Assembly (NCBI GenBank): GCA_041658745.1
Contig: JBAZZP010000001.1
Coordinates: 165,434 to 229,433, forward strand
Source of the DNA: Candidatus Margulisiibacteriota bacterium
GTDB taxonomy: Bacteria > Margulisbacteria > WOR-1 > O2-12-FULL-45-9
Length of the DNA stretch: 64,000 nucleotides
Reading direction: 5' to 3'
The translations under genes and the position numbers were made by a program. The notes beneath the pieces were generated by a model. The model saw nothing but the letters and a program-made list of their open reading frames with translations. It did no database searches and had not been told where the DNA came from. This document shows positions 5,312 through 54,095 of the stretch, piece by piece (within the stretch, counting starts at the first letter, position 1; every line of letters starts with the position of its first letter).

Positions 5312-5358
5312 CGTTCCCCTTTCTAATAACTATCGCAATGATTACACAGGTTATTCAA

Positions 5359-21014: not shown

Positions 21015-23083
21015 GCAGTTATATCTTTGGATGGGAAAAATAGATCTGTATATCTTTGAGTAACTACAGCTTCGCCCTTTTTGGCACAACATATTTTCAA
21101 ATAACCGTTGCCATCATCTTCAATTTTCAATTCTTTTCCGCCTTGCGTGCAATGAAGACCAAAATCAAAACTATATTTGATGATATGATCTCCATCACTA
21201 GCAAAAGTAATCTTCAGTGAACTTGTCCCAGCTTCAACCTTGGCAAAGGGGAAAGACTTTTCGTTGATAAAGGGTATAGCATAAAGAACAACTTTAAAAT
21301 CAGCCAATTTACTCTCATAATCTTCAATGAATGGCTCTTCACCTAATGCAATAAATCCAAATTCATCTAATTTTTTCTTGAATGGCTCTGTAAAAGCAAC
21401 TATATGGGTTATGCCCGAAGCAAGAATTGCTTGTTTTAGTTCGTCATAAGAAGAAGCACAATTAAAATAGGCACAAGTTTTTTCATACAAATCAAATTTA
21501 ATAAGTTCAACCATGGCGGAATTAAATATTTCACAGTTTTTATCAGCCAGATACAATGAAAAATACTCCGACAAAGTCTCAGAATGGATATTTCTCCCAC
21601 TTTTAACTGATCCTAGCTCAAAACCAACCCGATCAACCGCGGATAATTTGCCAAACAAATTATTTGCCTTTTTGATCAAGTCTTCTCGGGTGTTTAATTT
21701 GAACTTATAATAATAGTTATCCTCATGATTTTCCCAGCTTAGAAGATATGGAGGTAAAAACAAAAAGAATAATAACAATACGAGCGAAATCATATTAAAA
21801 GCATAAGCTAAGCATAAAATACCAACAACTGTCTGAAACATTCTGACAGTGTAAAGCGAGAAAAGCACTTTAATTTTAGCATTAATGTAACTTATGATCA
21901 CCGGACACATCGCCATGGCCAATACAACCAGGCTTCTAGAATAAAAAAATAGTGATAGTACAAATAACAAATAAAGCAAAAACTGCAGTAGGCGCAAATA
22001 GCCAAAACTATATTTGGAAGACCAGCCTTTATTAATCATTTTCATTCTGGTCATTTTTCTTATCTGCATTACAAATGGAACGATCCAACAACTAGCAACA
22101 AAAAAAGCAATAATTCCTGCTGGAAATAGATCAAAAAACTTTCCATGCAAAAGCGCATAGACGGCTATAAAAAAAACAAGTAAGCTCGCTACTCCAACAT
22201 GAGAAAGAACAAGTAAGCCCCAAAAAAGACCAGCAATATAGATATTTCCATATATAAATAAAACAAAACCGGAAAGGCCAAGCCCCCATGCTAAAATCTC
22301 ATAAACTCCTAATGAGGCATGTTCCCAGATAGTATTAGCTAACATAAAAAAGAAAAAGCAAGCGGCAATTTGCCATGGGGATATCAAGGCTATCTTATAG
22401 TATAGGGCAAACAAGCTAACAAACAGCAAAAGAGCTCCGAATAAAAAAGTAAGCCTGAATTTAAATTGCTTTATCATAAAGATTGAGAATGGAAAATGAT
22501 ATAACGAAACCGGAAAACCCATATATTCATTAAATGCATAGCCAAACAAACCATGCCTTTTTGCCCTATTTGCATATAAATACCAATAAATTACCCCAGA
22601 GAGACGGCCATTCATTCCAAAGCCAATAAAAGGCTTATCATCCTTTTCTCGTGGAAGGATAAAATTAGATAAAACCTCTCTTATTAAAAAAAGTGGTGTT
22701 AACAAGATAGCAATAAACGGGGAAAGCAACAAAGAAAAGGTATCCCAAAGCGCATTTAAAAAGCCATAAGACACATTGCCAATCTTAAAAGAAGTAAAGC
22801 ATAAAACAGATAAAAAATATAAGGCCAATTTAAATAACTTCGACAAAGGCTGATCTACCACACACAGCATTGATTTGGTTTTTAATTTACGGGCATTAAT
22901 TATTATAGATTTAAATTTGTTAATAGCATTTCCACCAGCCAGAGAAAAGATATTGTCAGGGCTGAATGCATCAGTGGAAAAGGAGGTTTTCCCGCAAATC
23001 AAGAGATCATCTCGAGAAAATTGCCCCTCATTCAACTTGTTTAAAAAATAAGAATCGGAAGCTAATTTAATTACGATATTCAT
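21011..23083 (-). CDS. large polytopic membrane protein with about 230-aa C-terminal soluble domain (candidate GT-C-type transferase)
   Basis: 690 aa. More than 10 hydrophobic helices across residues 90-450, then a hydrophilic C-terminal domain. No motif I can name with confidence. Confidence 0.35.
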   Translation of the reverse strand: MNIVIKLASDSYFLNKLNEGQFSRDDLLICGKTSFSTDAFSPDNIFSLAGGNAINKFKSIIINARKLKTKSMLCVVDQPLSKLFKLALYFLSVLCFTSFKIGNVSYGFLNALWDTFSLLLSPFIAILLTPLFLIREVLSNFILPREKDDKPFIGFGMNGRLSGVIYWYLYANRAKRHGLFGYAFNEYMGFPVSLYHFPFSIFMIKQFKFRLTFLFGALLLFVSLFALYYKIALISPWQIAACFFFFMLANTIWEHASLGVYEILAWGLGLSGFVLFIYGNIYIAGLFWGLLVLSHVGVASLLVFFIAVYALLHGKFFDLFPAGIIAFFVASCWIVPFVMQIRKMTRMKMINKGWSSKYSFGYLRLLQFLLYLLFVLSLFFYSRSLVVLAMAMCPVIISYINAKIKVLFSLYTVRMFQTVVGILCLAYAFNMISLVLLLFFLFLPPYLLSWENHEDNYYYKFKLNTREDLIKKANNLFGKLSAVDRVGFELGSVKSGRNIHSETLSEYFSLYLADKNCEIFNSAMVELIKFDLYEKTCAYFNCASSYDELKQAILASGITHIVAFTEPFKKKLDEFGFIALGEEPFIEDYESKLADFKVVLYAIPFINEKSFPFAKVEAGTSSLKITFASDGDHIIKYSFDFGLHCTQGGKELKIEDDGNGYLKICCAKKGEAVVTQRYTDLFFPSKDITA

Positions 23084-23104
23084 GTATTTTCACTATAAGG
23101 GAAT

Positions 23105-23902
23105 CTATTGTTTGGATAGAGCGAAAAATATAATCCCACCTTTGCCTTTTCCTTCAAATTTATTAACCAGCACTTCTGCCAGCCAAACAAACAGGCCAAT
23201 ATACTTGTTTCTAATTTGCGGCAAAACTATCCAGCGGTTTAACAATTTTTTACAAATAAAAGACAAAAAAGCAAAAGGAGCCATAAAATCATTCATTAAG
23301 CAAACGAATTTTGAATCATATTCAATTGCTTCTTTAACTTTAAACCCGTTTTTTTCAAACAAGGCAGTCCATTCTTCCCTGTTATGAAAATTATAGTGCC
23401 TCCAAAATCGATTAAAAAACCGTCGATATTTTTCCGCCAGTTCTGTTAGTCGCAATGATGAGAGAAACTGATATATAACACTATAATTATCAAACATATC
23501 GGTCGGCACTGTAACGTAAAACACCCCTTGGTCAGAAAGCAACCGATGAGCTTCTTGTAACACCGGTTCTAATGAAGGGATATGCTCCAAAACACTGTTA
23601 CTCATGATTGTATTAAAAAAATTAGATGGTTTTGTGATTTTATCCCCATAACACTCAATTAATTCAGCATACATTCCATATTCTTTAGCACGCTGTAATT
23701 CGGATTTGTTGGGATCAATGCCCACATCAATTTTTTCCGCAAACAATATAAAAGCAAACATACCTTCTCCGCAGCCAATATCCAAAATCGGACGATTAAA
23801 AGCGTGCTTTGAAAGTATCCTACATTCCAAATAACGCTCAATGGCAAGCGGAATCGGGGCTTCCTTCATATAGTTATCAAGGAAGTTGGTTTTAAAATTC
23901 AT
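23105..23902 (-). CDS. class I SAM-dependent methyltransferase
   Basis: 265 aa. ILDIGCGEGMF (motif I), NSVLEHIPS, GVFYVTVP. Confidence 0.75.
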   Translation of the reverse strand: MNFKTNFLDNYMKEAPIPLAIERYLECRILSKHAFNRPILDIGCGEGMFAFILFAEKIDVGIDPNKSELQRAKEYGMYAELIECYGDKITKPSNFFNTIMSNSVLEHIPSLEPVLQEAHRLLSDQGVFYVTVPTDMFDNYSVIYQFLSSLRLTELAEKYRRFFNRFWRHYNFHNREEWTALFEKNGFKVKEAIEYDSKFVCLMNDFMAPFAFLSFICKKLLNRWIVLPQIRNKYIGLFVWLAEVLVNKFEGKGKGGIIFFALSKQ

Positions 23903-23904
23903 TT

Positions 23905-25002
23905 TTATCTCCTTAGTTTTTTTAAATTTTCGCAGATAAATGCGATTTCTTCTTCTGACAGCGAAGGGAATGAAGGCAAACTCAACACATTTGCCCCAAC
24001 TTCTTCCGAAACAGGAAGCGCTGGTGCATGATATAAGGGCATAACACTAAAAGGATAAAAGCCTGGCCGCGTTTCAATCCCTTTTTCTTGCATTTGATTA
24101 ATTATTGCGTCCCTATTAAACTTAAAAGCTAAAGGATCAACTTTTACAGCGATTGCCCAAACAACCGGATCAACCGGCTTGGAAAAATGTTGCATTGTTA
24201 CGCCTGCAATATCGCTCAAAAATTTAGTATATAACAAGAAAACTCTTTTCTTTTCTGCAATTATTGCTGAGACGTTCTCCAACTGGCCACAACCTACCGC
24301 TGCTTGCATATTAGTAAGGCGGAAATTGTAACCAATAACATCATGCCAATAACGCTTGCCTATGCGCATACCATGATCGCGAATTAGTCGCATAGCTTTA
24401 TAGAGCTGTTCATTCTCCGTTAAAACACAGCCGCCTTCTCCCATTGTAATCGTCTTGGTTGCCTGAAAGCTAAAACAGCCAATATCGCCAAGTGTTCCGG
24501 CATATTTATTGCCATATTTCGAAAAAGCTGCTTCAGCAGTATCTTCAATTACGGCACGGTTGTGCTTTTTAGCGATCGAATTTATTGTATCCATTTCACA
24601 TACATTTCCGTAAATGTGAACTGGAACAACCGCCTTGGTCTTCCCAGTAATACAACTTTCTATCGCAACTGGGTCAATACACCAAGTAGCGGGATCAATA
24701 TCGGCATAAATTGGGGTTGCTCCGGATTCAATTACCATGTTAATGGGAGCAACAAAAGTAAACCCAGGGACAATGACCTCATCTCCTGGTTGAAGATTTA
24801 GAGCCCAAATGGCTAATTGCAAGGCAGTTGTGCCATTTGAAGTGGTTATTCCAAAATGGGCCCTATTGTATTGCGTAAATTCCTTCTCAAATTTTTCAAT
24901 ATACTGCCCACCGGAAATCCAGGTAGACGCCAAAGCATCAGCCAAGTATTTTTGTTCTTGTTCGAAAAATAGCGGTTTTGCCCAAGGAATGTTTGCTTTC
25001 AT
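23905..25002 (-). CDS. DegT-family sugar aminotransferase (ArnB/PglE-like)
   Basis: 365 aa. DEVIVPGFTFVAP; PLP lysine in SFQATKTITMGEGGCV. Confidence 0.85.
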   Translation of the reverse strand: MKANIPWAKPLFFEQEQKYLADALASTWISGGQYIEKFEKEFTQYNRAHFGITTSNGTTALQLAIWALNLQPGDEVIVPGFTFVAPINMVIESGATPIYADIDPATWCIDPVAIESCITGKTKAVVPVHIYGNVCEMDTINSIAKKHNRAVIEDTAEAAFSKYGNKYAGTLGDIGCFSFQATKTITMGEGGCVLTENEQLYKAMRLIRDHGMRIGKRYWHDVIGYNFRLTNMQAAVGCGQLENVSAIIAEKKRVFLLYTKFLSDIAGVTMQHFSKPVDPVVWAIAVKVDPLAFKFNRDAIINQMQEKGIETRPGFYPFSVMPLYHAPALPVSEEVGANVLSLPSFPSLSEEEIAFICENLKKLRR

Positions 25003-25009
25003 TTTGTGT

Positions 25010-25762
25010 TTACCGCCATTTGCCCTTTTTAGCTATAAATTGCCGATAAGCATCTCTAGTTGGCATTGGATAGTAACTACCTTTCCCAGAAGAAGGGAAG
25101 ATTTCAAATTTATCACCCAACTTGAATTTTTCAATTGTTGTAACCATTAATCGAGCGGTAATCCTAGTCAGTTTTCTATAAAGAGAGTCGACACTTTCAT
25201 CGGGAGTAATATCAAATTTTTCCTGCATAATCACATTGCCAGCATCAATTTTTTCTGCCATATAAAATATGCTAACTCCAGATGAAGTCTCTTTATTAAC
25301 AAGCTGCCAAAAAAAGACTTCAAGCCCTCGATAATCCGGCAAAATGGAAGGATGACAACCAATTGTAGCAACCCGAGCAAGTTTAATCGTGGCTTCTTTA
25401 TAGATATGCATAGTAAAGGTAGAGACGATAAGATCAGGAGAAAAATCCTTGATATATTCATGTGCCTTAGATCCATTAATATCTTCTGTAAAATACACTT
25501 CTATTTTCCATTTCTTAGATCGAGAATATAAGGTGTCACCTTTAAATTTATAAATTAATCCGTCCCAAAAACGATTAAGACAGAAAACGAAACTGGCTTC
25601 ACGCAACATCTTAATGATGGAAGCAAAAAATGACTTCTTATAATATAATCCAGTCGTGATTATTATACAAAAATCTATGTGGGGATGATTCTTAACGATT
25701 TCGGAAATAATCTCACGCGCACCAAAGTTATCGTGACCGACAAGAATTATTTTTTTTATCAT
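25010..25762 (-). CDS. sugar N-formyltransferase (formyl_trans_N fold, ArnA-N/WbkC/VioF-like)
   Basis: HPSILPDYRGL (HxSLLPxxRG motif) and KIDAGNVI (catalytic Asp region). The track ORF begins with TTG at 25795; the ATG at 25762 (MIKKIILVGHD...) is the likelier start. Confidence 0.7.
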   Translation of the reverse strand: MIKKIILVGHDNFGAREIISEIVKNHPHIDFCIIITTGLYYKKSFFASIIKMLREASFVFCLNRFWDGLIYKFKGDTLYSRSKKWKIEVYFTEDINGSKAHEYIKDFSPDLIVSTFTMHIYKEATIKLARVATIGCHPSILPDYRGLEVFFWQLVNKETSSGVSIFYMAEKIDAGNVIMQEKFDITPDESVDSLYRKLTRITARLMVTTIEKFKLGDKFEIFPSSGKGSYYPMPTRDAYRQFIAKKGKWR

Positions 25763-25911
25763 TTCATTGATTCCCCATAGATGAAACAAACTCAATTTCC
25801 GGCAACGACATCAATAATTTACCACTTTGCATTAAATAATCTATTTTGTCTGCCTTTGCATCTGTTTCTGATATTATCGGAATTACTGACTCCGAAGTAA
25901 TGCAACCTGAT

Positions 25912-26364
25912 TTATCCATGTTTATACTGCTCTAATACGCGCAAAATAAACTCATTATCAATCTCATCCAACCATTCAAGTGGCGTTTTCCACATATAGT
26001 CAGAGGACTGATCATCCAACCGCACATTACTCCCACTAACATTGATCTCAAAAACTGTTGTGATCGCATGAGATATATGGGGAGCTAAGTGTTCTTCTAG
26101 AAGTACATCATACGTACCCAATTCTTTTAATGAAGACAAAGTTAAACCACATTCTTCTTTTAACTTCCTAATTGCTGCTTTTTTTCTTAATTCACCAAAA
26201 TGTACACGTCCACCCGGAAACCACCACTGTCCCTTAGCCGGTGGATTTCTTCGTTTTATCATCAATACTCGCTTTTCCATATTTATCACTAATAGATCCA
26301 CGCAAGATATAGGCATAGATTTAAGCACTTGACGGTAAAACTTATCATCAATATACATAAGCAT
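25912..26364 (-). CDS. NUDIX hydrolase (GDP-sugar/mannosyl hydrolase-like)
   Basis: 150 aa. Canonical Nudix box GGRVHFGELRKKAAIRKLKEECGL (Gx5Ex7REUxEExGU). Confidence 0.75.
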   Translation of the reverse strand: MLMYIDDKFYRQVLKSMPISCVDLLVINMEKRVLMIKRRNPPAKGQWWFPGGRVHFGELRKKAAIRKLKEECGLTLSSLKELGTYDVLLEEHLAPHISHAITTVFEINVSGSNVRLDDQSSDYMWKTPLEWLDEIDNEFILRVLEQYKHG

Positions 26365-26377
26365 CCTTCTTATATTA

Positions 26378-27637
26378 TTAATTATGCGTTATTGTCTCAA
26401 TATTAGGCAAAGGAAAAACCAATCCTCTCCCTCGGCTCATAAAATTCTTCTCTTTTAAGATGATGCTATCTTTGAAATGCCAAAGCAGAACCATGAAATA
26501 ATCGGGATTCAATCTCCTGGCATCATCTTCGGAAATAATTGGAATTAATGTTCCAGGGGTATAGCAGCCAAATTTATCAATATTAACTTCCGCAATAAAC
26601 GGAATGTCTTTTTCAGTCAAATTGCAAAATTGCAAAATCACGTTCCCTTTGGTTGAAGCTCCGTAGCCAAAAACCTTCTCCCCTCTTTTGTTGGCAGCCT
26701 CGACAAATGCCCGTAATTGGTCGCGATGAGCAAAAACTCGAGCTTTAAATTCAGAATAAGGCTTTAAGATATTTAAGCCAAGAGCTTCTTCTTTTAGTAA
26801 AATTTCATTAACAAGCGACACGTTTTCTGCATATTGCGATTGCTTTTTAGCCAACATGACAGAAAAACTTCCGCCATTAATCTTATTAAATTCTATATCA
26901 AGAATCTTAAAACCAACTCGATCAGCCATCCATTTAATTTGTTTTAGGCGATAGTATTCTAAATGTTCATGGCAAGCAGTATCATAGGAATTCATCTCTA
27001 GCATCGTTGGCATATAACTTTGCTCAAAGACCCATACTCCATCATCTGCTAAGACATCGTAAACCTGTCGCATAAAATCTAGCGGCGCTTCTAAATCATA
27101 AAACATGGCAATCGAAGTAATAATTTTTGCTTTTTTCTCACCCCAATTTTTTTTAACCGCAGCGGCAGAAAAGAAGTCAGGAACCAATTGAACGTGAGAA
27201 GGATAATATTGTTTAAATTTAATCCCAGTTGGATCAATTCCGGCCAATACATATCCTTTATTGGGATAAGCTTGCAAAAGAGTGCTGTCATTACTACCAA
27301 TATCGATTACTAAATCATTTGCTTTAAGCTCTACGGCTGCAAGAATTCGTTTCACCTTGGCATTTAAATGCTGTACCATGGAATGATTCAGTCCCGATCG
27401 ATAGCCATAGTTATCCCCGTACATTTCACCCAAATCGTATGAATGCTTGAGCTGTAATAAGCCACAGTGTTTACCTTCTTCATCTTCTTGGCACTTAACT
27501 AATATTAAAGGGCCAGAAGTAACCAGCTGATCTTTTGTCTTCGGAAAGACTCCGGTCAAAGCCTGCACTCCCAAGTCAAGCACTGGAACAAGATCAGAAT
27601 TCCCACAAATTCGGCACTTACTTATTTCTTTGTACAT
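26378..27637 (-). CDS. NDP-hexose C-methyltransferase (TylCIII-like: Zn-ribbon + SAM MTase + C-methyltransferase C-terminal domain)
   Basis: 419 aa. N-terminal CRICG...C pair, DLVIDIGSNDSTLL (motif I), long C-terminal domain. Confidence 0.65.
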   Translation of the reverse strand: MYKEISKCRICGNSDLVPVLDLGVQALTGVFPKTKDQLVTSGPLILVKCQEDEEGKHCGLLQLKHSYDLGEMYGDNYGYRSGLNHSMVQHLNAKVKRILAAVELKANDLVIDIGSNDSTLLQAYPNKGYVLAGIDPTGIKFKQYYPSHVQLVPDFFSAAAVKKNWGEKKAKIITSIAMFYDLEAPLDFMRQVYDVLADDGVWVFEQSYMPTMLEMNSYDTACHEHLEYYRLKQIKWMADRVGFKILDIEFNKINGGSFSVMLAKKQSQYAENVSLVNEILLKEEALGLNILKPYSEFKARVFAHRDQLRAFVEAANKRGEKVFGYGASTKGNVILQFCNLTEKDIPFIAEVNIDKFGCYTPGTLIPIISEDDARRLNPDYFMVLLWHFKDSIILKEKNFMSRGRGLVFPLPNIETITHN

Positions 27638-28365
27638 CTGTTTTTGATCCTTTCTTTATAAGCCAATTTTAGCGACTCATAAAAATACTGCAGAAAAACT
27701 TTAATAAACTTTTGATTTCCTTCCCCCGTTGTTCGCTTACCATTTAAGGCAGGAAACTGCAAAATATTAGCCCCATTTTTCTGTAAATAAAACATTAAGC
27801 GAATACAATAATCACCGTATCCCCAAAAAATAGCATCGTAATCGCATTGCTGGATAACTTCTTTTTTTATGGCAAAAAAACCATATAAGCTATCTGTCAC
27901 CATTCCTTTGGTTATAATCCGAACAAAGATATTAAAAATCCAGCTCAAAAGATGGCGGGATCGGCTATCCATTCCACCACCATAAACAAAACGGGAAGCC
28001 GCGACACAATCGTAATGCGAAAGGGCTTGAACCATAAAAGGGAGATATTGGGGTTGGTGGTTAAAATCGGAATCCATAACCACAAAAACTTCGCCGGTAG
28101 CCTTTTCTAAACCGCAACGAATTGAATTGGCAAAGCCGCGATTTTTGGTCCGCAGAATCGGTTTTGCATAGGGCAAATTAAGCGCCAAGATAGCTTCATA
28201 AGTACCATCCGGACTATTATCATCAACCACGATTATTTCATGCTCGTTTTCGGTTAACTGCGCATGAATAACCTCAATTAGCCGAAGAACATTTTGTTTT
28301 TCGTTGTAAGTTGGCAAAATAACAGAAACTTTTACGTTTTTCATAAAACCAACATATCTCCTCAA
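27622..28365 (-). CDS. GT2 polyprenyl-phosphate sugar synthase (ArnC/DPM1-like)
   Basis: 247 aa. VSVILPTYNEKQNV, IIVVDDNSPDGT, VVMDSDFNHQP. Soluble, with no TM, like ArnC/GtrB-type enzymes. Confidence 0.7.
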   Translation of the reverse strand: MRRYVGFMKNVKVSVILPTYNEKQNVLRLIEVIHAQLTENEHEIIVVDDNSPDGTYEAILALNLPYAKPILRTKNRGFANSIRCGLEKATGEVFVVMDSDFNHQPQYLPFMVQALSHYDCVAASRFVYGGGMDSRSRHLLSWIFNIFVRIITKGMVTDSLYGFFAIKKEVIQQCDYDAIFWGYGDYCIRLMFYLQKNGANILQFPALNGKRTTGEGNQKFIKVFLQYFYESLKLAYKERIKNRCTKK

Positions 28366-28377
28366 TCGTGCTTTAAG

Positions 28378-29421
28378 TTATTGCGCATAGATAGAAGGGT
28401 CATTAATTGCATCCCAAGGGAAAACTTTACCTTTTAAATGACTTTGCCAACGATCAAGATCGCCTTGAACCATTAACTTCACTAATTCCTTTAATTTTGT
28501 TTTTGGCTCCCAGCCAATAACTTTTCTAATTTTTGAAGCATCCCCTATTAAGCAATTAACATCCAGGGGCCTTAGATGTTTTTTATCTTGCGAAACAACG
28601 TCTTTTGGATCCACTCCAGCATTTTCACATGCCAGCTCAAAGAATTCTCTTACTGTATGACTTTCACCGGTAGCAACCACATAATCATCAGGGGTATTGT
28701 GCTGCAACATTTTCCACATGGCTTCGACATATTCTGGCGCATATCCCCAATCACGTTTAGCATCTAAGTTGCCAAGTACAATCTTTTTCTGCAATCCCAG
28801 CTTAATTCTGGCAACTGCATTAGAAATTTTTCTGGTTACAAATTCAAGTCCGCGCAACGGTGATTCATGGTTAAACAATATCCCATTAACTGCAAAAATT
28901 CCATAAGCTTCTCGATAAATTCTAATTTGATGATATGAATAGAGTTTAGCTGACGCGTAGGGAGAGGAAGGCCAAAAAACATGGTGCTCATTTAGCTCAA
29001 CATTATTCACCAAATTCGCTGCTTTTCCGTTACCATATAATTCAGATGTAGAGGCTTGATAGATTTTTATCTTTGGATTAATTTGTTTGGCGGATTCTAG
29101 CAGCATTACAACCCCAATACCGTCAACCTGAGCCGTGACTAATGGCTGGTCAAAGGAAGTTCCAACAAAACTCTGCGCCGCCAAATTATAAATTTCATCA
29201 GGTTCTGACTGGATAATTGCATTACTAATTGAAGCCATGTCTGTCATATCTCCAGGAATTAATTGCACCTGATCATTAACACCTAGGCTAAGCAGTCTCC
29301 AGATATTGGTACTCGACGTCCTACGATATAGACCAAAAACAGAATACCCCTTTTCTAAGAGTAATTTGGCTAAATAGGCCCCATCTTGACCTGTTATACC
29401 AGTAATTAATGCTCTTTTCAT
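28378..29421 (-). CDS. gmd: GDP-mannose 4,6-dehydratase
   Basis: 347 aa. GITGQDGAYLAKLLLEKGY, YASAKLYSY, LFNHESPLRG, all hallmark GMD motifs. Confidence 0.9.
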   Translation of the reverse strand: MKRALITGITGQDGAYLAKLLLEKGYSVFGLYRRTSSTNIWRLLSLGVNDQVQLIPGDMTDMASISNAIIQSEPDEIYNLAAQSFVGTSFDQPLVTAQVDGIGVVMLLESAKQINPKIKIYQASTSELYGNGKAANLVNNVELNEHHVFWPSSPYASAKLYSYHQIRIYREAYGIFAVNGILFNHESPLRGLEFVTRKISNAVARIKLGLQKKIVLGNLDAKRDWGYAPEYVEAMWKMLQHNTPDDYVVATGESHTVREFFELACENAGVDPKDVVSQDKKHLRPLDVNCLIGDASKIRKVIGWEPKTKLKELVKLMVQGDLDRWQSHLKGKVFPWDAINDPSIYAQ

Positions 29422-29448
29422 GCAAAATTCCTCCTAAACCAGCTAGAA

Positions 29449-30516
29449 TTAATCACAAGAAATATTTTTTAACACTTTTTGGTATTCCCCCCATTGCCCA
29501 ATATCCACCCAAGCACCCTCGCTTACCGGATATACTCCAATCTGCCCCTTTTCTTCCTTCACCTTTGAAATTAAGTCCGTGATGTGAAAGAGTTTGCCTT
29601 CCGGGATTAAATCAATCACCCTTTTATTTATAACATAAAGTCCCGTATTAACCAAAAAGTCAAATTCGGGTTTTTCCACTAATTCCTCCAGTTTTCCGCC
29701 ATTGCTTACTTTCATTACACCATAAGGAACCTTATAGTTCTGAACAGAACCAACCAAGGTAATATCGTTTTTATCTTTTTGATGAAAATTTAGTAAATCA
29801 TCATAATGGGCGTCAATCATAATATCACAATTTGAAACAAAAAAATCATCAGAAAGAATTTTATTTATCAATTTAACACCGCCTACTGTTCCCAGCGGAT
29901 CTTTTTCCCAATAATAGGTAAATATATACCCAGTATCAATATTATCGAGAAAAGATTTAATCATTTCGCCTTTATAATTTAGAATTAAATCAAACTCCCT
30001 GAAACCATATTTGGCAAATTTGTCCATTATTATTTCAATTATGGCTTTCTCCCCAATGGGGACAAGTGCTTTAGGAAATATTTTGGTAAAAGGGGATAAG
30101 CGGGTACCTTTGCCACCCGTCATAATCACGACCGAAATTGCCTTCTTGGCTACTGCACGTTTGTGGCTTCCGTCAAACACTACATCCCAAAATAATATAT
30201 CTTTTATACATTGCTGTTCATCAACAACTGGAATAGATTCGATTTCACCTTCAAACATCTTGTCCTTAACTGCTGAGAGGTCATAATTTTGCTTAAAACT
30301 TGTCGGCGTTCTATTCATAATAGACGCAACACTGCAGTTCAAATCGCCATTATTTAAGATCCATCTTCTAATGTCCCCATCCGAAACCGAACCCAAAAGC
30401 TGGTTTTCTTTCCCAACAATAAAAACAATTTTCTTAGAATTCTTATCCATGAGGCGCATGGCCTCTTTTACGCTAATATCATCCTTTGCAAGATATTTAT
30501 CAAGATTATCTATCAT
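29449..30516 (-). CDS. CBS-domain sugar-phosphate nucleotidyltransferase (PtmE-like, putative GlcN/GlcNAc-1-P guanylyl/cytidylyl-transferase)
   Basis: 355 aa. N-terminal CBS pair, then VVIMTGGKGTRLSPFTKIFPKALVPIG (GxGTRL nucleotidyltransferase motif). Confidence 0.75.
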   Translation of the reverse strand: MIDNLDKYLAKDDISVKEAMRLMDKNSKKIVFIVGKENQLLGSVSDGDIRRWILNNGDLNCSVASIMNRTPTSFKQNYDLSAVKDKMFEGEIESIPVVDEQQCIKDILFWDVVFDGSHKRAVAKKAISVVIMTGGKGTRLSPFTKIFPKALVPIGEKAIIEIIMDKFAKYGFREFDLILNYKGEMIKSFLDNIDTGYIFTYYWEKDPLGTVGGVKLINKILSDDFFVSNCDIMIDAHYDDLLNFHQKDKNDITLVGSVQNYKVPYGVMKVSNGGKLEELVEKPEFDFLVNTGLYVINKRVIDLIPEGKLFHITDLISKVKEEKGQIGVYPVSEGAWVDIGQWGEYQKVLKNISCD

Positions 30517-31150
30517 TCGTTATTCTCCTGGCAGGAACGCCAGCAACTCGAAAATTTTCAGCAACATCCTTAATTACTACAGAACCGGCACCAATTAGGG
30601 CATTTTCCCCAATTTTAATTCCCTGGATGATATGTGTCCCCAAACCGACAAAAGCATTAGCACCAATTTGCACCCTGCCTCCCAAAACAACTCCCGGAGA
30701 AACGATAGCATTCTGAGAAACTAGGCAATCATGCTCAATAATGGCTCCGGTATTAATTATGACATTATCCTTTATTTGTGCGGAAGGATTTATAATTGCT
30801 CCTGCACCAACAAAAATCCCTTTTCCAAGAGTAGAATTTTGGGCAATAATGGCTGTTGGATGAATAATATTTACAAGTTCCAGCCCGGCACTTTTCATCT
30901 TTTCAATAACGCTTAATCTAACACTCATTTCGCCCGTACTCCCCACAGTACAAATAGCTTTACAAATCCCCTTTTTTATTAGGTCTGAAAAATCAACATC
31001 TTTTCCTAAAAAAGGTATTTTCCCAAAGATTAATCCACGGTCTTCAATATCAACATATCCGGCCAAATGATACTCGCCAGACATTTCCGCCGTATCAGCC
31101 ACCACCCTTGCATGATCTCCCCCCCCAACTAATATAATTTTTTCTTTCAT
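30506..31150 (-). CDS. NeuD/PglD/LegH-family sugar N-acetyltransferase
   Basis: 214 aa. Rossmann-like N-terminal domain (KIILVGGGDHARVV) plus C-terminal hexapeptide repeats. Confidence 0.75.
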   Translation of the reverse strand: MKEKIILVGGGDHARVVADTAEMSGEYHLAGYVDIEDRGLIFGKIPFLGKDVDFSDLIKKGICKAICTVGSTGEMSVRLSVIEKMKSAGLELVNIIHPTAIIAQNSTLGKGIFVGAGAIINPSAQIKDNVIINTGAIIEHDCLVSQNAIVSPGVVLGGRVQIGANAFVGLGTHIIQGIKIGENALIGAGSVVIKDVAENFRVAGVPARRITNDR

Positions 31151-32328
31151 TTTAAATCAATAAACCTCTTTTTAATATTTGAAAAATCATAAGTTTTAAG
31201 CTTATTTTTAATTTTACTGCTCACATTGCCATGCCAAAAAGGATTGGTAAGACCAGCTATTGATTTAATAAACTGCGGTGATTGGGCTTTTGCAACGCCT
31301 TTTAAAATTGACTCCCATGAAGCAGCAACATCGATAACATTGGCTGGTTTTAACCGTCCTTTTTGCCGATCTCCTACATTTACGACCGGGAGGCGAAAAG
31401 ATGCCGCCTCAATAATGCCAGAAGAAGAATTTCCCACCATCATGCCGACATGTTGCATTAGAGAAAAATAGCGCAATTGGCCAAGGGATTGGAAGCCTTT
31501 TGCTAAACCATGCGATGATTGAATATATTTATCAATCGCTCTAATGATACTATCATTCTCATTATCCGCATTGGGCATGGTAAAAATAATTCTCATCCCA
31601 CTCTTTGAGAGTGCCAAAAGCAGGTTATCAATTTGGACCTTCGCACTTCCCTTTTCCAAAGTAACAGGATGAAAAGTGACTAAAGCCACATCTTGCCCCA
31701 AAGTAAAACCTAATTGATTTTCAAGCTCCGTTTTTGACAATAGTTTTAACTTTTTGAGATTATCAAGGCCGGGCGCCCCAAAGTTAAATACCCTGGTCGG
31801 ATCTTCCCCCATTTGGATCACTCGTTGGCCATATTCTGCATGCGAAACAAAATGGAGATAGGCCATTTTTGTAATGGCATGGCGAATAGAATCGTCATAA
31901 GCCCCTTCGGTAATTTCGCCGCCGTGAATATGGACAATCGGGATTCTAAAAAGCATAGCAGCAACCGAAGCAGCTAAAATCTCAAAGCGATCACCCAAAA
32001 CTACCACCACGTCAGGCTTCAGCTTTTTAAATACCTTCCCAAAACCAGAAACGGCTAGACCGACCGAATGGGTAATAGCTTCATCGCTATCCGAATTTAA
32101 TGCCATCGGCACTTTCGCGCTAATTTTGATTCCGTCCTTTAATATTTCCTTATATGTCAGTCCAAATTTAGGCTCAAGATGCATTCCGGCAACCACCGCC
32201 TGCAAAATTAATTCCCGGTCATTTTTGATCGCATGCATTAAGCCGGATAATATCCCATATTCTGCCCGAGAACCAGTAACCACACATATTTTTCTATTGC
32301 TTTTTAGCATATTTTTGGATAACTCCAA
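31147..32328 (-). CDS. UDP/GDP-N-acetylglucosamine 2-epimerase (hydrolysing), NeuC/LegG-like
   Basis: 393 aa. KICVVTGSRAEYG, VVVLGDRFEILAA, IVHIHGGE. Confidence 0.85.
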   Translation of the reverse strand: MELSKNMLKSNRKICVVTGSRAEYGILSGLMHAIKNDRELILQAVVAGMHLEPKFGLTYKEILKDGIKISAKVPMALNSDSDEAITHSVGLAVSGFGKVFKKLKPDVVVVLGDRFEILAASVAAMLFRIPIVHIHGGEITEGAYDDSIRHAITKMAYLHFVSHAEYGQRVIQMGEDPTRVFNFGAPGLDNLKKLKLLSKTELENQLGFTLGQDVALVTFHPVTLEKGSAKVQIDNLLLALSKSGMRIIFTMPNADNENDSIIRAIDKYIQSSHGLAKGFQSLGQLRYFSLMQHVGMMVGNSSSGIIEAASFRLPVVNVGDRQKGRLKPANVIDVAASWESILKGVAKAQSPQFIKSIAGLTNPFWHGNVSSKIKNKLKTYDFSNIKKRFIDLK

Positions 32329-33472
32329 CCACCCTTTTAATATCTTTTTCGCTCAAATTAATGCTGCATGGCAAATTTAACACTTGATTGTAATATTTTT
32401 CTGCTTTTTCAATTTTATAAGATTGATTCTTTTTATAGGGCTTTTGTTTATGGTTTAAATACCACAGAGGTCGAGCTTGAATACCATGATTATTCAATGC
32501 TTTCATAAGCTCAAAATTGGTTTTTCCGTAAATCTTTGCATCGATTATTAAAGAATAAAACCAAAAATTGCTGGAAGCATAATCTGGCTCATTAATCATT
32601 TGAAGACCATCAATTTCCCCAAGCATTTGCTCATACAATTTGAAGTTTTTTCTTTTAATTTTAATATAAGCAGATAACCTTTCTAGTTGTGCAACGCCCA
32701 TAGCCGCTTGGACATTGGTTAAGCGATAATTATAGCCAATTTCATTATGGATATATTTGATTGCACTATCTTTGGCTTGTGTAGTTAGATAGCGCGCCTT
32801 TTTAGCTAATTGGGGATCATTAGTTACCAGCATTCCTCCTCCACCAGTAGTAATAATCTTATTGCCATTAAAAGAAAAACAACCAATCTGCCCAACAGCT
32901 CCAGTCATTTTGTTTTTAAACTTGCCATTTACAAAAAATGACCCGAGAGATTCAGTAGCATCTTCAATAATAGTTAAATTGTATTTCTTTGCTAGCCCAA
33001 TTAAAGCATTCATATCAACCGGAGAGCCAAAGATATGCACAGGAATAATAGCTTTAACCGATCTTTTGCTTCTTTTATTAATTAGCTGGCCTTTTTTAAA
33101 GACACACTCGTTTTTGATAAATTGTTCAACTTTTCCAACATCAATATTCAAGTAATCATCGCAATCCATAAATACGGGTTCAGCTCCAACATATTTAATA
33201 GTATTAACAGGTGCAATAAAGGTTAATGTTGGGACAAGCACTTCATCGTGCAGGCCAACACCAGAAATAAGCAAGCTAATATGAAGGGCGGCAGTCCCAT
33301 TAACACATGCCACGGCATATTTGGTTCCAACATAAGCCGCCAGCTGATCTTCAAATTTATCGACATATTTTCCAACCGACGACACCCAGCCGCTGTCTAG
33401 ACAATCTTTAATATAGCGCCATTCATTGCCGCCGATGCAAGGCTCGGATAAAGGAATTTTAATATCAGACAT
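32294..33472 (-). CDS. DegT-family sugar aminotransferase (LegC/PseC-like)
   Basis: 392 aa. PLP lysine in SFNGNKIITTGGGGML. Confidence 0.85.
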   Translation of the reverse strand: MSDIKIPLSEPCIGGNEWRYIKDCLDSGWVSSVGKYVDKFEDQLAAYVGTKYAVACVNGTAALHISLLISGVGLHDEVLVPTLTFIAPVNTIKYVGAEPVFMDCDDYLNIDVGKVEQFIKNECVFKKGQLINKRSKRSVKAIIPVHIFGSPVDMNALIGLAKKYNLTIIEDATESLGSFFVNGKFKNKMTGAVGQIGCFSFNGNKIITTGGGGMLVTNDPQLAKKARYLTTQAKDSAIKYIHNEIGYNYRLTNVQAAMGVAQLERLSAYIKIKRKNFKLYEQMLGEIDGLQMINEPDYASSNFWFYSLIIDAKIYGKTNFELMKALNNHGIQARPLWYLNHKQKPYKKNQSYKIEKAEKYYNQVLNLPCSINLSEKDIKRVVGVIQKYAKKQ

Positions 33473-34463
33473 TATAGATTCCTGCCTTATAGCAATGCTG
33501 ATTATTTTTCATCCAGTTTATGGTTTCAATTAATCCTTGCTCTAAGTTATAATTCGGGCTCCATTTAGTCATAGCGATGAGCTTTTTGTTACAGCCAAGA
33601 AGCCTTTTTACTTCACTTTTTGATGGGCGAATTCTTTGCTTATCAGTAATAATTTTGATATTGGCCTTGGGAGAAATTAAAGCAATTAGTTTTTGCGCTA
33701 GTTCGCCAATACTTATATCTTGCCCAGAGCATATATTAATTTCTTCCCCTATCGTATTTTTTGATTTTGCAATTTCAATAAAGCCCAAACAAGTATCCTT
33801 AACATAATTCAGGTCTCTCCTGGGAGAAAGATCTCCCAACTTTATTGTTCTTTGACCGGATAATATTTGACTAATTATCGTCGGGATAACCGCCCGAGCC
33901 GATTGTCTTGGACCATAGGTATTAAAAGGACGAACAATTGTAACCGGAAGATTGAACGAACGATAAAAGGACTCTGCAATCCGATCTGCTCCTATTTTGG
34001 TCGCACTATAAGGGGACTGAGCCTGCATGGGATGTTTTTCGTCTATTGGAACGTACAATGCCGTTCCATAGACCTCGGAAGTCGAAGTAACAAGCACTCT
34101 TTCAATGGATAAATCTCTGGCTGCCTGAAGGACATTCAACGTTCCTTTAATATTTGTATCAACGTAATTGTCTGGCGAATGGTATGAATATGGAATTCCA
34201 ATCAAAGCAGCTAGATGAAAAACAACATCTACTCCCTTGATTGCCTCTCTTACTCCGTTATGATCTCGCACGTCTCCTGTGAAAACTTCAATTTGATTGA
34301 GCTTTTCTTTTGGGAGGGTATCAAGCCAACCCCAACTATTAAAAGAATTATAATAACAAAAGGCCTTCACTTTGGCTTTAGCATCTACTAAAGCTTCAAC
34401 CAAATGACTGCCAATAAATCCATCTGCGCCAGTTACTAACACAGTTTTATTTTTTAAATTCAT
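33465..34463 (-). CDS. extended-SDR NDP-sugar 4,6-dehydratase/epimerase (LegB/FnlA-like)
   Basis: 332 aa. VLVTGADGFIGSHL, YSATKIGAD (YxxxK). Confidence 0.75.
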   Translation of the reverse strand: MNLKNKTVLVTGADGFIGSHLVEALVDAKAKVKAFCYYNSFNSWGWLDTLPKEKLNQIEVFTGDVRDHNGVREAIKGVDVVFHLAALIGIPYSYHSPDNYVDTNIKGTLNVLQAARDLSIERVLVTSTSEVYGTALYVPIDEKHPMQAQSPYSATKIGADRIAESFYRSFNLPVTIVRPFNTYGPRQSARAVIPTIISQILSGQRTIKLGDLSPRRDLNYVKDTCLGFIEIAKSKNTIGEEINICSGQDISIGELAQKLIALISPKANIKIITDKQRIRPSKSEVKRLLGCNKKLIAMTKWSPNYNLEQGLIETINWMKNNQHCYKAGIYNV

Positions 34464-34465
34464 AA

Positions 34466-34927: not shown

Positions 34928-34948
34928 TTCTCACTCCTAATTAATCAA

Positions 34949-36064: not shown

Positions 36065-36069
36065 AAAAA

Positions 36070-36076
36070 CCTCCTT
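36070..36076 (-). promoter_or_regulatory. Shine-Dalgarno AAGGAGG for amidotransferase start at 36064
   Basis: Minus-strand AAGGAGGTTTTTATG, with perfect 5-nt spacing. Confidence 0.55.
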
Positions 36077-36189
36077 AAATTCATCTAAAATATATCTATT
36101 TGACAAAATGAGAGAAAATTATTTCGCCAAACAGCAACACCTTAGCTAAACGGGAACGCCTATTCATTCCTAAAATCACCTCCTTCTTC

Positions 36190-37215: not shown

Positions 37216-37249
37216 ATTATTTAAAACAACCTTTTCCAGCTTATAATCA

Positions 37250-39000: not shown

Positions 39001-39005
39001 AATAC

Positions 39006-41690: not shown

Positions 41691-41693
41691 GAC

Positions 41694-51555: not shown

Positions 51556-51566
51556 GTTTTTCCTCC

Positions 51567-52697: not shown

Positions 52698-52701
52698 TTA
52701 A

Positions 52702-54080: not shown

Positions 54081-54095
54081 TGGTCTCCTAGCCCC

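Follow-up and report, generated by a model that had tools for sequence, protein, structure and literature searches.

The window, a 64,000-nucleotide stretch of contig JBAZZP010000001.1 from a Candidatus Margulisiibacteriota bacterium, contains a run of eight or nine tightly packed genes on its minus strand, all reading in one direction, which extends from 29421 to 21011, or to 19536 if the last gene is counted. From 5′ to 3′ these genes are:

[quoted passage not shown]
27622–28365, minus strand: GT2, soluble dolichol-P-mannose synthase (DPMS)/ArnC-like glycosyltransferase, 247 residues (PF00535, 110 bits)
26378–27637, minus strand: CMT1, TylC3/TcaB9/KijD1-type NDP-4-keto-hexose C-methyltransferase (Zn ribbon, SAM domain and C-terminal domain)
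25912–26364, minus strand: Nudix1, Gmm-like Nudix hydrolase (PF00293 NUDIX, 56 bits)
25010–25795, minus strand: formyltransferase-fold enzyme, 261 residues (PF00551, 77.5 bits)
23905–25002, minus strand: Per-like, GDP-perosamine-synthase-like PLP aminotransferase, predicted C-4 transamination (PF01041, 383 bits)
23105–23902, minus strand: MT265, class I SAM methyltransferase, 265 residues, a core member of the module (Methyltransf_23/31/11)
21011–23083, minus strand: polytopic membrane protein, 690 residues, GT-C fold (predicted structure)
19536–21092, minus strand: Wzx-like flippase adjoining the GT-C gene (Polysacc_synt, PF01943, 66 bits)

The initial annotation described gmd, a C-methyltransferase and a Nudix gene, and all three are present on the minus strand where it placed them. 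It omitted the 247-residue GT2 gene lying between gmd and CMT1, with which the flagged interval makes up the first four genes of the module; it also passed over the genes immediately 3′ of these, which encode the formyltransferase-like protein, the aminotransferase, the SAM methyltransferase and the 690-residue membrane protein. What was computed directly is the identity and domain architecture of each gene product, the conserved co-occurrence of the genes, the GT-C fold prediction and the resemblance of GT2 to DPMS.

The product of gmd is predicted to be GDP-4-keto-6-deoxy-D-mannose. Its score against TIGR01472 (379.5 bits) falls slightly short of the equivalog cut-off of 415 bits, which counts a little against the reading developed below. 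Among solved structures, the best matches are without exception GDP-mannose 4,6-dehydratases (296–380 bits), that of P. aeruginosa (1rpn, 380 bits) being the closest, and a GDP-heptose dehydratase structure reaches only 119 bits. Orthologues occur within the same module in loci L001 (70% identity) and L084 (73%), and in L087, where the gene is split into two fragments (71% and 64%).

CMT1 exceeds the Pfam cut-offs for Methyltransf_13 (Zn-binding, 51.7 bits), Methyltransf_23 (52.5 bits) and Methyltransf_14, the C-terminal C-methyltransferase domain (158.6 bits). It matches TylC3 (4rv9, E = 7e-49), KijD1 and TcaB9 over the full length. As the initial annotation had proposed, its nearest characterised relatives are sugar C-methyltransferases, and not O- or N-methyltransferases. 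The E224–H225 dyad and the four cysteines are invariant, and the position of Tyr222 in TcaB9 is occupied by Cys. In the phylogeny CMT1 groups as a sister clade to TylC3 and KijD1 (29% and 27% identity, respectively); this clade is distinct and highly conserved, with 56–69% identity across more than 10 phyla.

We examined 80 loci that contain CMT1 orthologues. A true gmd is present in 41 of these, directly adjacent in 31, compared with eight that contain rfbB and one that contains a CDP-glucose dehydratase. These counts support a GDP-linked substrate for CMT1 and, because the clade goes with gmd, this is presumably a GDP-linked 2-hydroxy sugar. A search for a characterised GDP-sugar C-methyltransferase found none, and every solved relative (TylC3, TcaB9, KijD1) takes dTDP-sugars. 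The window also encodes dTDP-glucose (rfbB) and CDP-glucose 4,6-dehydratases, which would supply other 4-keto substrates and count against the GDP route. One of these enzymes might then provide CMT1 with its substrate, a dTDP- or CDP-4-keto-6-deoxyhexose, and the position of CMT1 beside gmd would be a coincidence. We consider this very improbable given the frequency of gmd: the SDR found 3′ of the C-methyltransferase in other loci is a GMD paralogue, the partners of CMT1 in the module all indicate GDP, and the CDP genes are part of a separately conserved module containing the second C-methyltransferase, CMT2.

CMT2 is present at 51567–52697, as the initial annotation reported, but it is not linked to rfbA and rfbB as had been suggested. 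It is a highly divergent paralogue (approximately 20% identical to CMT1) in a separate CDP-sugar/ThDP/radical-SAM module, linked to a CDP-glucose dehydratase, an RfbH/E1 3-dehydrase, a ThDP enzyme and radical-SAM enzymes. Of the two C-methylated deoxyhexoses previously proposed for the locus, a second C-branched sugar from this module is plausible, but it would not simply be another C-methylated deoxyhexose. The identification of rfbB (46127–47101) was confirmed (TIGR01181, 464 bits against a cut-off of 365), while rfbA (47102–47833) is RmlA-like but scores 246 against a cut-off of 361.

Two types of C-methyltransferase locus are relevant here. In the commoner type (28 of 80) a GMD-paralogue SDR lies directly downstream of the C-methyltransferase and there is no aminotransferase. 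In the other type, to which the window and no fewer than 10 related loci belong, the C-methyltransferase goes instead with an N-acyl-donor gene and an aminotransferase resembling perosamine synthase, and these loci contain no SDR besides gmd. The set of gmd, GT2, C-methyltransferase, Per-like gene and MT265 recurs at 50–73% identity in seven loci (L001, L009, L077, L084, L086, L087 and L088), which differ in gene order and in phylum. Four further genome loci, L053 among them, also pair a C-methyltransferase with a Per-like gene; of these four, L053 alone was annotated in detail, and there a GNAT gene lies 3′ of the Per-like gene.

The aminotransferase is closest to Caulobacter perosamine synthase (3bn1 and 3dr4, 284–287 bits), followed by a “sugar aminotransferase” (7b0m, 255 bits), with the remainder at 211 bits or less. 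It retains the Lys motif SF-x-x-x-K, and orthologues at 50–67% identity occur in every locus of the window's type. The legionaminic acid branch is served by a separate LegB and LegC (the latter at 32294–33472), both over their cut-offs, and therefore does not need the Per-like gene. The best structural matches of the formyltransferase-fold enzyme are the ArnA N-terminal domain (73 bits) and the Brucella GDP-perosamine N-formyltransferase WbkC (68 bits), which is also 261 residues long. The enzyme is a candidate for N-formylating the 4-amino group, and it retains the His and Asp; the catalytic Asn of the N-x-H motif is replaced by Gly, as it is in a 62% identical orthologue in L009, and this loss counts against the formylation step. 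Depending on the locus, the slot between the C-methyltransferase and the Per-like gene holds a formyltransferase, a GNAT or FkbH with ACP and MaoC, which is the pattern expected if an amine is N-acylated. MT265 has only generic structural matches; its orthologues (49–59%) always lie immediately 3′ of the Per-like gene.

These partners bear on the search for a 4-ketoreductase, for which the initial annotation had put forward the SDR at 53199–54080 (SDR293). The gene exists, but its conserved place is in the CMT2 module: in L090 a 59% identical orthologue is contiguous with orthologues of CMT2 and Nudix2, and beside CMT1 orthologues it occurs in none of the 80 loci. No ketoreductase would be needed, because the aminotransferase would turn C-4 into an amine. 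It is unlikely that the module makes a neutral GDP-6-deoxy-C-methyl-hexose (like 3-C-methyl-rhamnose or virenose) through Gmd, CMT1 and a distant reductase such as SDR293, with the aminotransferase and formyltransferase serving another sugar. Such a route does have the dominant architecture of the C-methyltransferase family behind it, as well as O-antigens with 3-C-methyl-D-rhamnose and 3-C-methyl-D-mannose (PMC7203242, PMC9912281) and the Coxiella virenose proposal, in which gmd is combined with a TylCIII-like methyltransferase and an Fcl-like enzyme (PMC3539893, PMC3204966). However, the corresponding SDR is missing from the module here and in L001, L084 and L086–L088, and the Per-like gene and MT265 strictly co-vary with this C-methyltransferase subtype.

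Two pathways could in principle share one gmd. Gmd, the Per-like enzyme and the formyltransferase would suffice for N-formylperosamine, the combination being known from Brucella (WbkC structures), and the product of CMT1 would be reduced separately, by a bifunctional GMD or another reductase; a bifunctional GMD/reductase activity has been mentioned (PMC3539893), and the P. aeruginosa enzyme is the closest to the gmd of the window. We find this improbable too, since it leaves unexplained the joint inheritance of the C-methyltransferase, Per-like gene and MT265 across phyla and gene orders, the dedicated SDR of the reductase-type loci, and the fusion of GT2 to the C-methyltransferase (P0045 in L001), which counts for the reading proposed below.

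GT2, whose probable start is the ATG at 28344, has a DxD motif (D98-S-D100) and matches Pyrococcus DPMS best (5mlz, E = 4e-32, residues 8–233), with ArnC structures next. It is thus a candidate GDP-sugar:polyprenyl-phosphate transferase. Orthologues at 61–68% identity are found in every locus of the window's type, and in L092 an orthologue of 40% identity and the GT-C gene overlap; on the other side, the neighbouring GT2 in L053 is unrelated. The 690-residue protein most likely represents a new, previously undescribed family of GT-C-fold glycosyltransferases, as judged from its predicted structure, for which Foldseek gives weak E-values (none better than 0.01), and is a candidate for the transferase using the polyprenyl-P-sugar. 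The family occurs only after the Per–MT265 pair, even at 26–29% identity. Counting against its role, L009 and L077 keep the sugar genes yet carry another, non-homologous large membrane protein, and a strictly conserved acidic residue was not found in the first external loop of the family. The Wzx-like flippase may belong to the module, and in L084 and L085 the same neighbour lies 3′ of the GT-C gene. No transmembrane segment was found in GT2, which counts against a lipid-carrier step. GT2 could instead be a conventional cytoplasmic glycosyltransferase acting on an Und-PP-linked repeat unit, and the 690-residue protein a polymerase, ligase or protein glycosyltransferase, with no polyprenyl-P form of the sugar. 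The locus is otherwise Wzx/Wzy-like (initiating transferase at 3495–4127, Wza and Wzz), a related GT2 in L011 is fused to a methyltransferase, three GT-C homologues are fused to an unrelated GT2, and the GT-C fold also covers the oligosaccharyltransferases STT3, PglB and AglB. Even so, we regard this arrangement as rather doubtful.

The Nudix gene is accessory rather than core to the module, being found in only three of nine loci of the window's type. Its box (G52-x5-E58-x7-R66-K-L-K-E70-E71-C-G), previously called canonical, is close to that form, with RK in place of RE. The top NCBIfam match is GDP-mannose mannosyl hydrolase, and the match to E. coli Gmm has E = 5e-12. We rejected its identification as a bona fide Gmm on the sub-cut-off score (56.6 bits against 146) and the replacement of the catalytic His124 by Ser, a change shared by the orthologues in L009 and L077.

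We therefore propose, with reasonable though far from full confidence, that the module starts from GDP-mannose and makes a 4-amino-6-deoxy sugar bearing a C-methyl and an N-acyl group, which is passed to a lipid carrier and then to a membrane glycosyltransferase, in an Arn-like manner; this product is more likely than the simple C-methyl deoxyhexose suggested initially. We infer this reading, including its substrates, reaction order, regiochemistry, acyl group, lipid carrier and acceptor, from sequence, gene context and predicted structure. Gmd would form GDP-4-keto-6-deoxymannose (D-mannose series) from GDP-mannose, and CMT1 would deprotonate and methylate a carbon beside the 4-keto group, C-3 by homology, with C-5 possible. 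It is established for TylC3 and TcaB9 that this class of C-methyltransferase needs the 4-keto group of its substrate, and C-methylation should therefore precede transamination. The Per-like enzyme would then convert the C-4 keto group to an amine, which the formyltransferase-fold enzyme would N-acylate, probably with formyl, and MT265 would add a further methyl group (O- or N-). Finally, GT2 would move the finished sugar from GDP to polyprenyl phosphate and, after flipping, the GT-C enzyme would hand it to some periplasmic acceptor.

The proposed logic is that of the Arn system (PmrHFIJKLM), which adds L-Ara4N to lipid A and whose ArnB, ArnA formyltransferase domain, ArnC and ArnT correspond to enzymes of the module. 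The carrier in Arn is UDP rather than GDP, and its 4-keto group arises through an oxidative decarboxylase that gives a pentose, whereas the module has a 4,6-dehydratase and a 6-deoxyhexose. The module further differs in its C-methyltransferase and extra methyltransferase, in an aminotransferase that is perosamine-synthase-like and not ArnB-like, and in a GT2 without transmembrane helices. Neither an ArnD-type deformylase nor a GtrA/ArnEF-type flippase was found for the module, and its GT-C protein does not resemble ArnT in sequence.

CMT1 shares the three-domain architecture, four Zn-binding cysteines and Glu–His dyad of TylC3, TcaB9, KijD1 and EryBIII, which are dTDP-hexose 3-C-methyltransferases of actinomycete antibiotic pathways; unlike them, its clade is associated with gmd and it lies in a surface-glycan locus, not a secondary-metabolite cluster. 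The proposal for GDP-virenose in Coxiella burnetii (gmd CBU0689, TylCIII-like CBU0691, Fcl-like CBU0688) likewise has a TylCIII-type enzyme beside gmd methylating a GDP-mannose-derived 4-keto sugar (PMC3539893, PMC3204966), and the commoner loci in our survey fit that scheme. CBU0691 is reported to be 44% identical to TylCIII, compared with 29% for CMT1, and the Coxiella pathway is still unproven (PMC13252051). This route and those to 3-C-methyl-D-rhamnose and -mannose end by ketoreduction in a neutral sugar, whereas the module would end by transamination and N-acylation.

Brucella makes GDP-N-formylperosamine with Gmd, Per and WbkC, and the module similarly has Gmd, a perosamine-synthase-like aminotransferase and an N-formyltransferase-like protein of WbkC length. 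The E. coli O157 cluster contains gmd, per and gmm (wbdQ), and thus resembles the module in having a Gmm-like Nudix gene. Compared with both, the module lacks the Gmm catalytic His in its Nudix protein and the catalytic Asn in its formyltransferase, and its two methyltransferases (CMT1 and MT265), DPMS-like GT2 and GT-C enzyme are additions.

N-acylkansosamine, from the lipooligosaccharide of Mycobacterium kansasii, is a 4,6-dideoxy-2-O-methyl-3-C-methyl-4-acylamido-manno-hexose. No known compound is chemically closer to the predicted product, which would likewise be 6-deoxy, 3-C-methyl, 4-acylamido and further methylated; the likeness is a chemical one, and the organism and glycoconjugate are unrelated to those of the module. 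In the M. kansasii system a GT2 has also been proposed to load a 6-deoxyhexose onto polyprenol (PMC4403928, which gives N-acylkansosamine by name only).

The whole 64-kb window is a single co-directional glycan locus, which encodes an initiating transferase, Wzx, Wza, Wzz and a full legionaminic-acid-type gene set, together with three different NDP-hexose 4,6-dehydratases. [quoted passage not shown] All three were confirmed there, on the minus strand; however, the interval holds four minus-strand genes, a glycosyltransferase gene (GT2) having been missed. Further genes follow downstream of the Nudix gene.

Genes of the flagged interval and those downstream of it
28378-29421, minus strand: gmd, matching Pfam GDP_Man_Dehyd (PF16363) at 396 bits
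27622-28365, minus strand: GT2, a soluble protein of 247 aa
26378-27637, minus strand: the C-methyltransferase CMT1, with three diagnostic Pfam domains above their cut-offs
25912-26364, minus strand: the Nudix protein Nudix1, with a Pfam match and a near-canonical Nudix box
25010-25795, minus strand, downstream of Nudix1: formyltransferase-fold gene
23905-25002, minus strand, downstream of Nudix1: DegT aminotransferase resembling perosamine synthase (Per-like)
23105-23902, minus strand, downstream of Nudix1: SAM methyltransferase of 265 aa (MT265)
21011-23083, minus strand, downstream of Nudix1: membrane protein of 690 aa

A promoter scan of 19000-31000 was uninformative, with 44 promoter-like sites against 42 expected, and a scan of the same region gave no intergenic terminators on the coding strand. 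The top 11 PDB matches to the gmd product are all GMDs (296-380 bits), compared to 119 bits for a GDP-heptose dehydratase and 108 bits for the reductase Rmd. Assignment as a GDP-heptose dehydratase (119 bits) or as LegB (87 bits) was ruled out. The curated equivalog TIGR01472 is narrowly missed, at 379.5 bits against a cut-off of 415.

CMT1 was analyzed in terms of domains and conserved residues. The N-terminal four-cysteine zinc domain (PF08421) scores 51.7 bits against a cut-off of 31.3, and its cysteines C8, C11, C49 and C58 are unchanged across 22 orthologues. The C-terminal C-methyltransferase domain that the initial annotation had expected is present by HMM, with a PF08484 match of 158.6 bits that runs from position 2 to position 160 of the 160-position profile. 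E224-H225 corresponds to the catalytic dyad E224/H225 of TcaB9 and is invariant in the 22 orthologues. Full-length alignments link CMT1 to TylC3 (E 7e-49, 29% identity), KijD1 (27% identity) and TcaB9. Protein P0001, from a Candidatus Margulisiibacteriota MAG, matches CMT1 at 100% identity, which identifies the source. On the basis of its architecture, cysteines and dyad, CMT1 is predicted to be an NDP-hexose C-methyltransferase of the TylC3/TcaB9 type. In the mechanism of these enzymes, C-methylation needs a 4-keto group, and it must therefore precede any transamination.

The adjacency of gmd is insufficient by itself to assign the substrate of CMT1, because two alternative 4-keto sources, a dTDP-glucose dehydratase (46127-47101) and a CDP-glucose dehydratase (61649-62707), lie in the window as well. 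We therefore turn to the wider family. Relatives are encoded in at least 594 of 600 candidate stretches from species-representative genomes, and 80 genome loci with CMT1 orthologues at 56-67% identity (L004-L083) were fetched. The phyla represented by these loci include Nitrospirota, Omnitrophota, Planctomycetota, Bacteroidota, Proteobacteria, Patescibacteria, Chloroflexota, Acidobacteriota and Spirochaetota, among others. The clade shows 56-69% identity over more than 10 phyla, CPR lineages included. A true gmd (at least 40% identity) occurs in 41 of the 80 loci and is directly adjacent in 31, as against eight loci with rfbB and one with a CDP-glucose dehydratase. In the commonest layout (28/80) the C-methyltransferase is followed directly by an SDR paralogous to GMD (179 bits to GMDs), and a GT2 often comes after that. 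(An 'SDR upstream' class produced by automatic classification was too crude and was left out.) Because of these frequencies, and because the following SDR is a GMD paralogue, a GDP-linked substrate is the best-supported assignment from gene context. From the spread of the clade, C-methyl-branched GDP-sugars would seem to be far more frequent than chemical reports imply. B12-binding radical SAM enzymes occur within or beside the C-methyltransferase modules of other phyla (L009, 7825-9267 and 14457-15872; L011, 14593-16095), and may be responsible for additional C-methylation of the sugar concerned.

The product of the pathway is suggested by the genes that accompany CMT1. A set comprising gmd, GT2, C-methyltransferase, Per-like and MT265 recurs at 50-73% identity, in differing gene order, in seven related loci (L001, L009, L077, L084, L086, L087 and L088). 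The only variable gene is the slot between the C-methyltransferase and the aminotransferase.

Occupants of the slot between C-methyltransferase and aminotransferase
Window and L009: formyltransferase and Nudix
L084: GNAT acetyltransferase
L086: FkbH, acyl carrier protein and MaoC
L087 and L088: small unknown proteins

This swapping of acyl donors is what would be expected if the pathway yields an amine that is then N-acylated. A Burkholderiales locus (L053) contains gmd, Wzx, a methyltransferase, Per, GNAT, GT2 and C-methyltransferase, and there is no SDR besides gmd either in this locus or in the window-type loci. In L001, GT2 and the C-methyltransferase are fused into one 660-aa protein (P0045, 10001-11983). 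Elsewhere, L011 has a 475-aa fusion of GT2 with a SAM methyltransferase (12194-13621), and in L087 gmd is split into ORFs of 160 and 168 aa (4326-5446), possibly through a frameshift, pseudogene formation or an assembly error.

Per-like retains the active-site lysine motif SFQATK of the DegT-fold PLP aminotransferases. Its closest characterized relatives are the perosamine synthases 3bn1 and 3dr4 (284-287 bits), followed by 7b0m (255 bits) and others at 211 bits or below, and its predicted activity is thus similar to that of GDP-perosamine synthase. The possibility that it serves the legionaminic-acid branch was rejected: that branch has its own LegB and LegC, both above curated cut-offs, which leaves Per-like free for the C-methyltransferase pathway.

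The best structural relatives of the formyltransferase-fold protein are the ArnA N-domain and Brucella WbkC, a GDP-perosamine N-formyltransferase of the same length. Its Pfam match spans profile positions 69-180 only, and the Asn-His-Asp triad of N10-formyl-THF transferases is incomplete: relative to ArnA, His and Asp are kept and Asn is replaced by Gly (IGCHPSILP), as also in the L009 orthologue. A second formyltransferase-like gene at 8490-9503 likewise has Gly for the catalytic Asn; beside it are 2-oxoacid dehydrogenase E1 alpha (7466-8443) and beta (6484-7482) genes, which are unexpected in a glycan locus. MT265 gave generic class I matches only, which do not distinguish an O- from an N-methyltransferase.

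The Nudix1 box, described as canonical in the initial annotation, is near-canonical only (GX5EX7-RK-L-K-EE-C-G). The closest relative of Nudix1 is E. coli GDP-mannose mannosyl hydrolase (Gmm; E 5e-12, full length). Against NCBIfam PRK15434 (Gmm/NudD/WcaH; cut-off 146), both Nudix1 (56.6 bits) and the second Nudix protein of the window, Nudix2 (52702-53202; 41.1 bits), fall below the threshold. Neither has the pair of Gmm hallmarks, which are His124 and a reduced box with a single Glu: Nudix1 and its L009 and L077 orthologues have Ser in place of the catalytic base His124 and retain both box Glu residues (RKLKEECG), and Nudix2 has a Gmm-style reduced box (AVAKNE) with no aligned His. By score and residues, Nudix1 falls short of a strict Gmm. 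Only three of nine window-type loci have it, which makes it an accessory member; it may trim the GDP-sugar pool.

The initial annotation also named an SDR at 53199-54080 (SDR293) as a candidate for the missing reductase, and took a second C-methyltransferase homologue, CMT2 (51567-52697), near rfbA/rfbB as a sign of a second C-methylated deoxyhexose. Neither link is supported. A 59% identical orthologue of SDR293 is contiguous with Nudix2 and CMT2 orthologues in L090, where this group adjoins a ThDP enzyme and a radical-SAM enzyme, and no homologue lies near any of the 80 CMT1 orthologues. The conserved partners of CMT2 in L089 and L090 are not rfbA/rfbB: they are the ThDP enzyme, SDR293, Nudix2 (a conserved neighbour of CMT2), a radical-SAM protein, RfbH/E1 and a UbiA-family protein. 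Orthologues of the ThDP enzyme, SDR293, Nudix2, CMT2, the radical-SAM protein rSAM366 and RfbH co-localize in these two unrelated contigs, and the radical-SAM partner of CMT2 (50455-51555) shows 72% identity in this comparison. The region 50455-62707 on the minus strand thus appears as a second conserved sugar module, apparently uncharacterized.

Genes of the CMT2 module
61649-62707, minus strand: CDP-glucose 4,6-dehydratase
60774-61652, minus strand: DPPR-synthase-like UbiA protein
59397-60734, minus strand: RfbH/E1 3-dehydrase (730 bits, cut-off 423)
58507-59376, minus strand: short NeuB-like protein
57984-58484, minus strand: KdsC-like phosphatase
56175-57983, minus strand: ThDP/acetolactate-synthase-like enzyme, possibly YerE-like
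Further genes, minus strand: GFO oxidoreductase, two radical SAM/SPASM proteins, SDR293, Nudix2 and CMT2

CMT2 shares only about 20% identity with CMT1, TylC3 and KijD1. All four zinc cysteines are present, yet PF08421 scores 21.2 bits, below the cut-off of 31.3; CMT2 does pass PF08484 at 58.6 bits, over positions 54-146 of 160 only. In its relatives, which have more than 4000 matches and form a family of their own, a conserved Asp-His replaces Glu-His. A second C-branched sugar is plausible, made by a CDP-3,6-dideoxy, yersiniose-like route, but it would not be a second simple C-methyl deoxyhexose. We speculate that the NeuB-like condensing enzyme could receive free sugar released by the Gmm-like Nudix2. 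Taken as a whole, the initial annotation's reading of gmd, Nudix and C-methyltransferase as a route to a C-methyl deoxyhexose is thus supported in part.

Other gene sets adjoin these modules. Immediately upstream of gmd, at 29449-37984, is the complete legionaminic-acid-type set: a CBS-nucleotidyltransferase (PtmE-like), a PglD-like acetyltransferase, a NeuC-like epimerase, LegC (502 bits), LegB (503 bits), NeuB (498 bits), an ATC_hydrolase-domain protein, a WbuX N-acetyl-sugar amidotransferase and a CMP-transferase. The C-methyltransferase module of L084, L086 and L087 likewise has NeuB and CMP-transferase genes at its flanks. The region 37981-43025 contains a second NeuB-family gene (37981-39000), then DegT, hexapeptide acetyltransferase, GFO oxidoreductase and UDP-sugar 6-dehydrogenase genes, which as a WbpA/B/D/E-like set points to a 2,3-diacetamido uronic acid. 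A 420-aa polytopic membrane protein (14893-16155) has no Pfam or NCBIfam match and is a possible Wzy polymerase; a 417-aa protein at the window edge (62694-63947) had no match in the NCBIfam search.

GT2 has a GT-A domain with the DxD motif D98-S-D100, and no transmembrane segment. Pyrococcus DPMS aligns with it over residues 8-233 against 20-248 (E 4e-32), covering the whole catalytic domain including the acceptor half, and ArnC is the next match; other GT2s align only to about residue 150, within the N-terminal half. The DxD motif and the full-domain similarity lead us to predict that GT2 is a polyprenyl-phosphate glycosyltransferase of the DPM1/DPMS, ArnC and GtrB class. In L092, a DPMS-like GT2 orthologue adjoins or overlaps the gene for the 690-aa protein.

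The 690-aa protein has no sequence match in Pfam, NCBIfam or PDB, the last including a profile search. It is rare, with seven close homologues in 5.8 billion sequences and a family of about 82 representatives in 1.84 billion proteins. It follows Per-like and MT265 in each of the seven loci examined, even where identity drops to 26-29%, and does so directly in six; in L092 the GT2 orthologue lies between. A first AlphaFold2 model, based on seven sequences, was poor (pLDDT 49) and was set aside. The predicted fold combines a multi-TM module with an extracytoplasmic domain, and on this basis the protein is a putative GT-C glycosyltransferase. In the window protein, E146, D148 and D149, all acidic, come after the first transmembrane helices, and no column in the first extracytoplasmic loop of the family reaches 80% Asp/Glu; among polar residues, E262, H295 and R346 are invariant. 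Three homologues of about 1007 aa (P0123, P0124 and P0126) carry an unrelated C-terminal GT2 domain. The large unannotated membrane proteins found in L009 (595 aa) and in L077 (666 aa) were considered as homologues and rejected, both by phmmer and by a 41-sequence HMM; they are different, non-homologous proteins.

A pathway can be proposed from these genes. The gene identities, their co-occurrence and the predicted fold are computed, and from them we infer the substrates, order, regiochemistry, acyl group, carrier lipid and acceptor. Gmd would convert GDP-mannose to GDP-4-keto-6-deoxymannose, which CMT1 would methylate at C-3 by homology, or possibly at C-5. Per-like would convert the 4-keto group to a 4-amine, which would be N-acylated, probably with formyl, and MT265 would add one further methyl group. 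The DPM1/ArnC-like GT2 would transfer the sugar to give a polyprenyl-P-sugar and, after flipping, the GT-C enzyme would place it onto an acceptor. We regard the amino-sugar part of this pathway as likely, and give the lipid-carrier and GT-C part slightly better than even chances; an Arn-like C-methyl amino-sugar pathway overall is reasonably probable. More tentatively, and with rather less than an even chance of being correct, we propose that the module is an unrecognized surface-modification system comparable to Arn and Gtr, in which a soluble DPM1-like GT2 loads a GDP-derived C-methyl, N-acyl, further-methylated 4-amino-6-deoxyhexose onto polyprenyl phosphate, and a new GT-C family, co-evolved with Per-like and MT265, delivers it.

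If this lipid-carrier surface-modification system is real, the sugar would, kansosamine of mycobacteria aside, define a new class among bacterial monosaccharides, one in which the N-acyl group is interchangeable, and, given the breadth of the C-methyltransferase family, C-methyl-branched sugars would be widespread in uncultured bacteria. The Arn-like pathway, if correct, would add to C-methyl sugar biosynthesis an amino-sugar branch in which the N-acyl group can be swapped, would bring a new family of GT-C glycosyltransferases whose donor is predicted, and would suggest that branched-chain sugars on bacterial surfaces are much commoner than glycan chemistry records. If it is wrong, the region would be an ordinary portion of a very large O-antigen or capsule locus.

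Virenose is a virulence sugar of Coxiella, and N-acylkansosamine of M. kansasii is the nearest known chemical analogue of the predicted product. For Coxiella virenose, a route that pairs gmd with a methyltransferase of the TylCIII type is a published but unproven proposal (PMC3539893, PMC3204966, PMC13252051). N-acylkansosamine is named in PMC4403928, and 3-C-methyl-D-rhamnose and 3-C-methyl-D-mannose are known and described as 'quite uncommon' (PMC7203242, PMC9912281). Our literature searches found no characterized GDP-sugar C-methyltransferase or 3-C-methyl-perosamine-type sugar beyond the Coxiella proposals, and no characterized member of the module's families. As far as we could find, the literature has no earlier description of an amino-sugar branch that combines N-acyl diversity with a DPM1-like GT2 and a new GT-C family, both dedicated to it. 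The gmd-adjacent C-methyltransferase, from a highly conserved clade, looks tractable as a candidate for work on GDP-sugar C-methyltransferases and the virenose pathway.

The closest comparison is with the Arn system, in which the route from a formylated amino sugar through polyprenyl phosphate to a GT-C enzyme underlies polymyxin resistance; the module would be a second example of this route. Among those window ORFs of 140 aa or longer that were scanned, there is neither an ArnD-type deformylase nor an ArnE/F flippase; beside the GT-C gene there is only a Wzx-like gene. The proposed pathway shares the logic of ArnB, the ArnA N-domain, ArnC and ArnT, here moved to a GDP-6-deoxyhexose and with C-methylation added.
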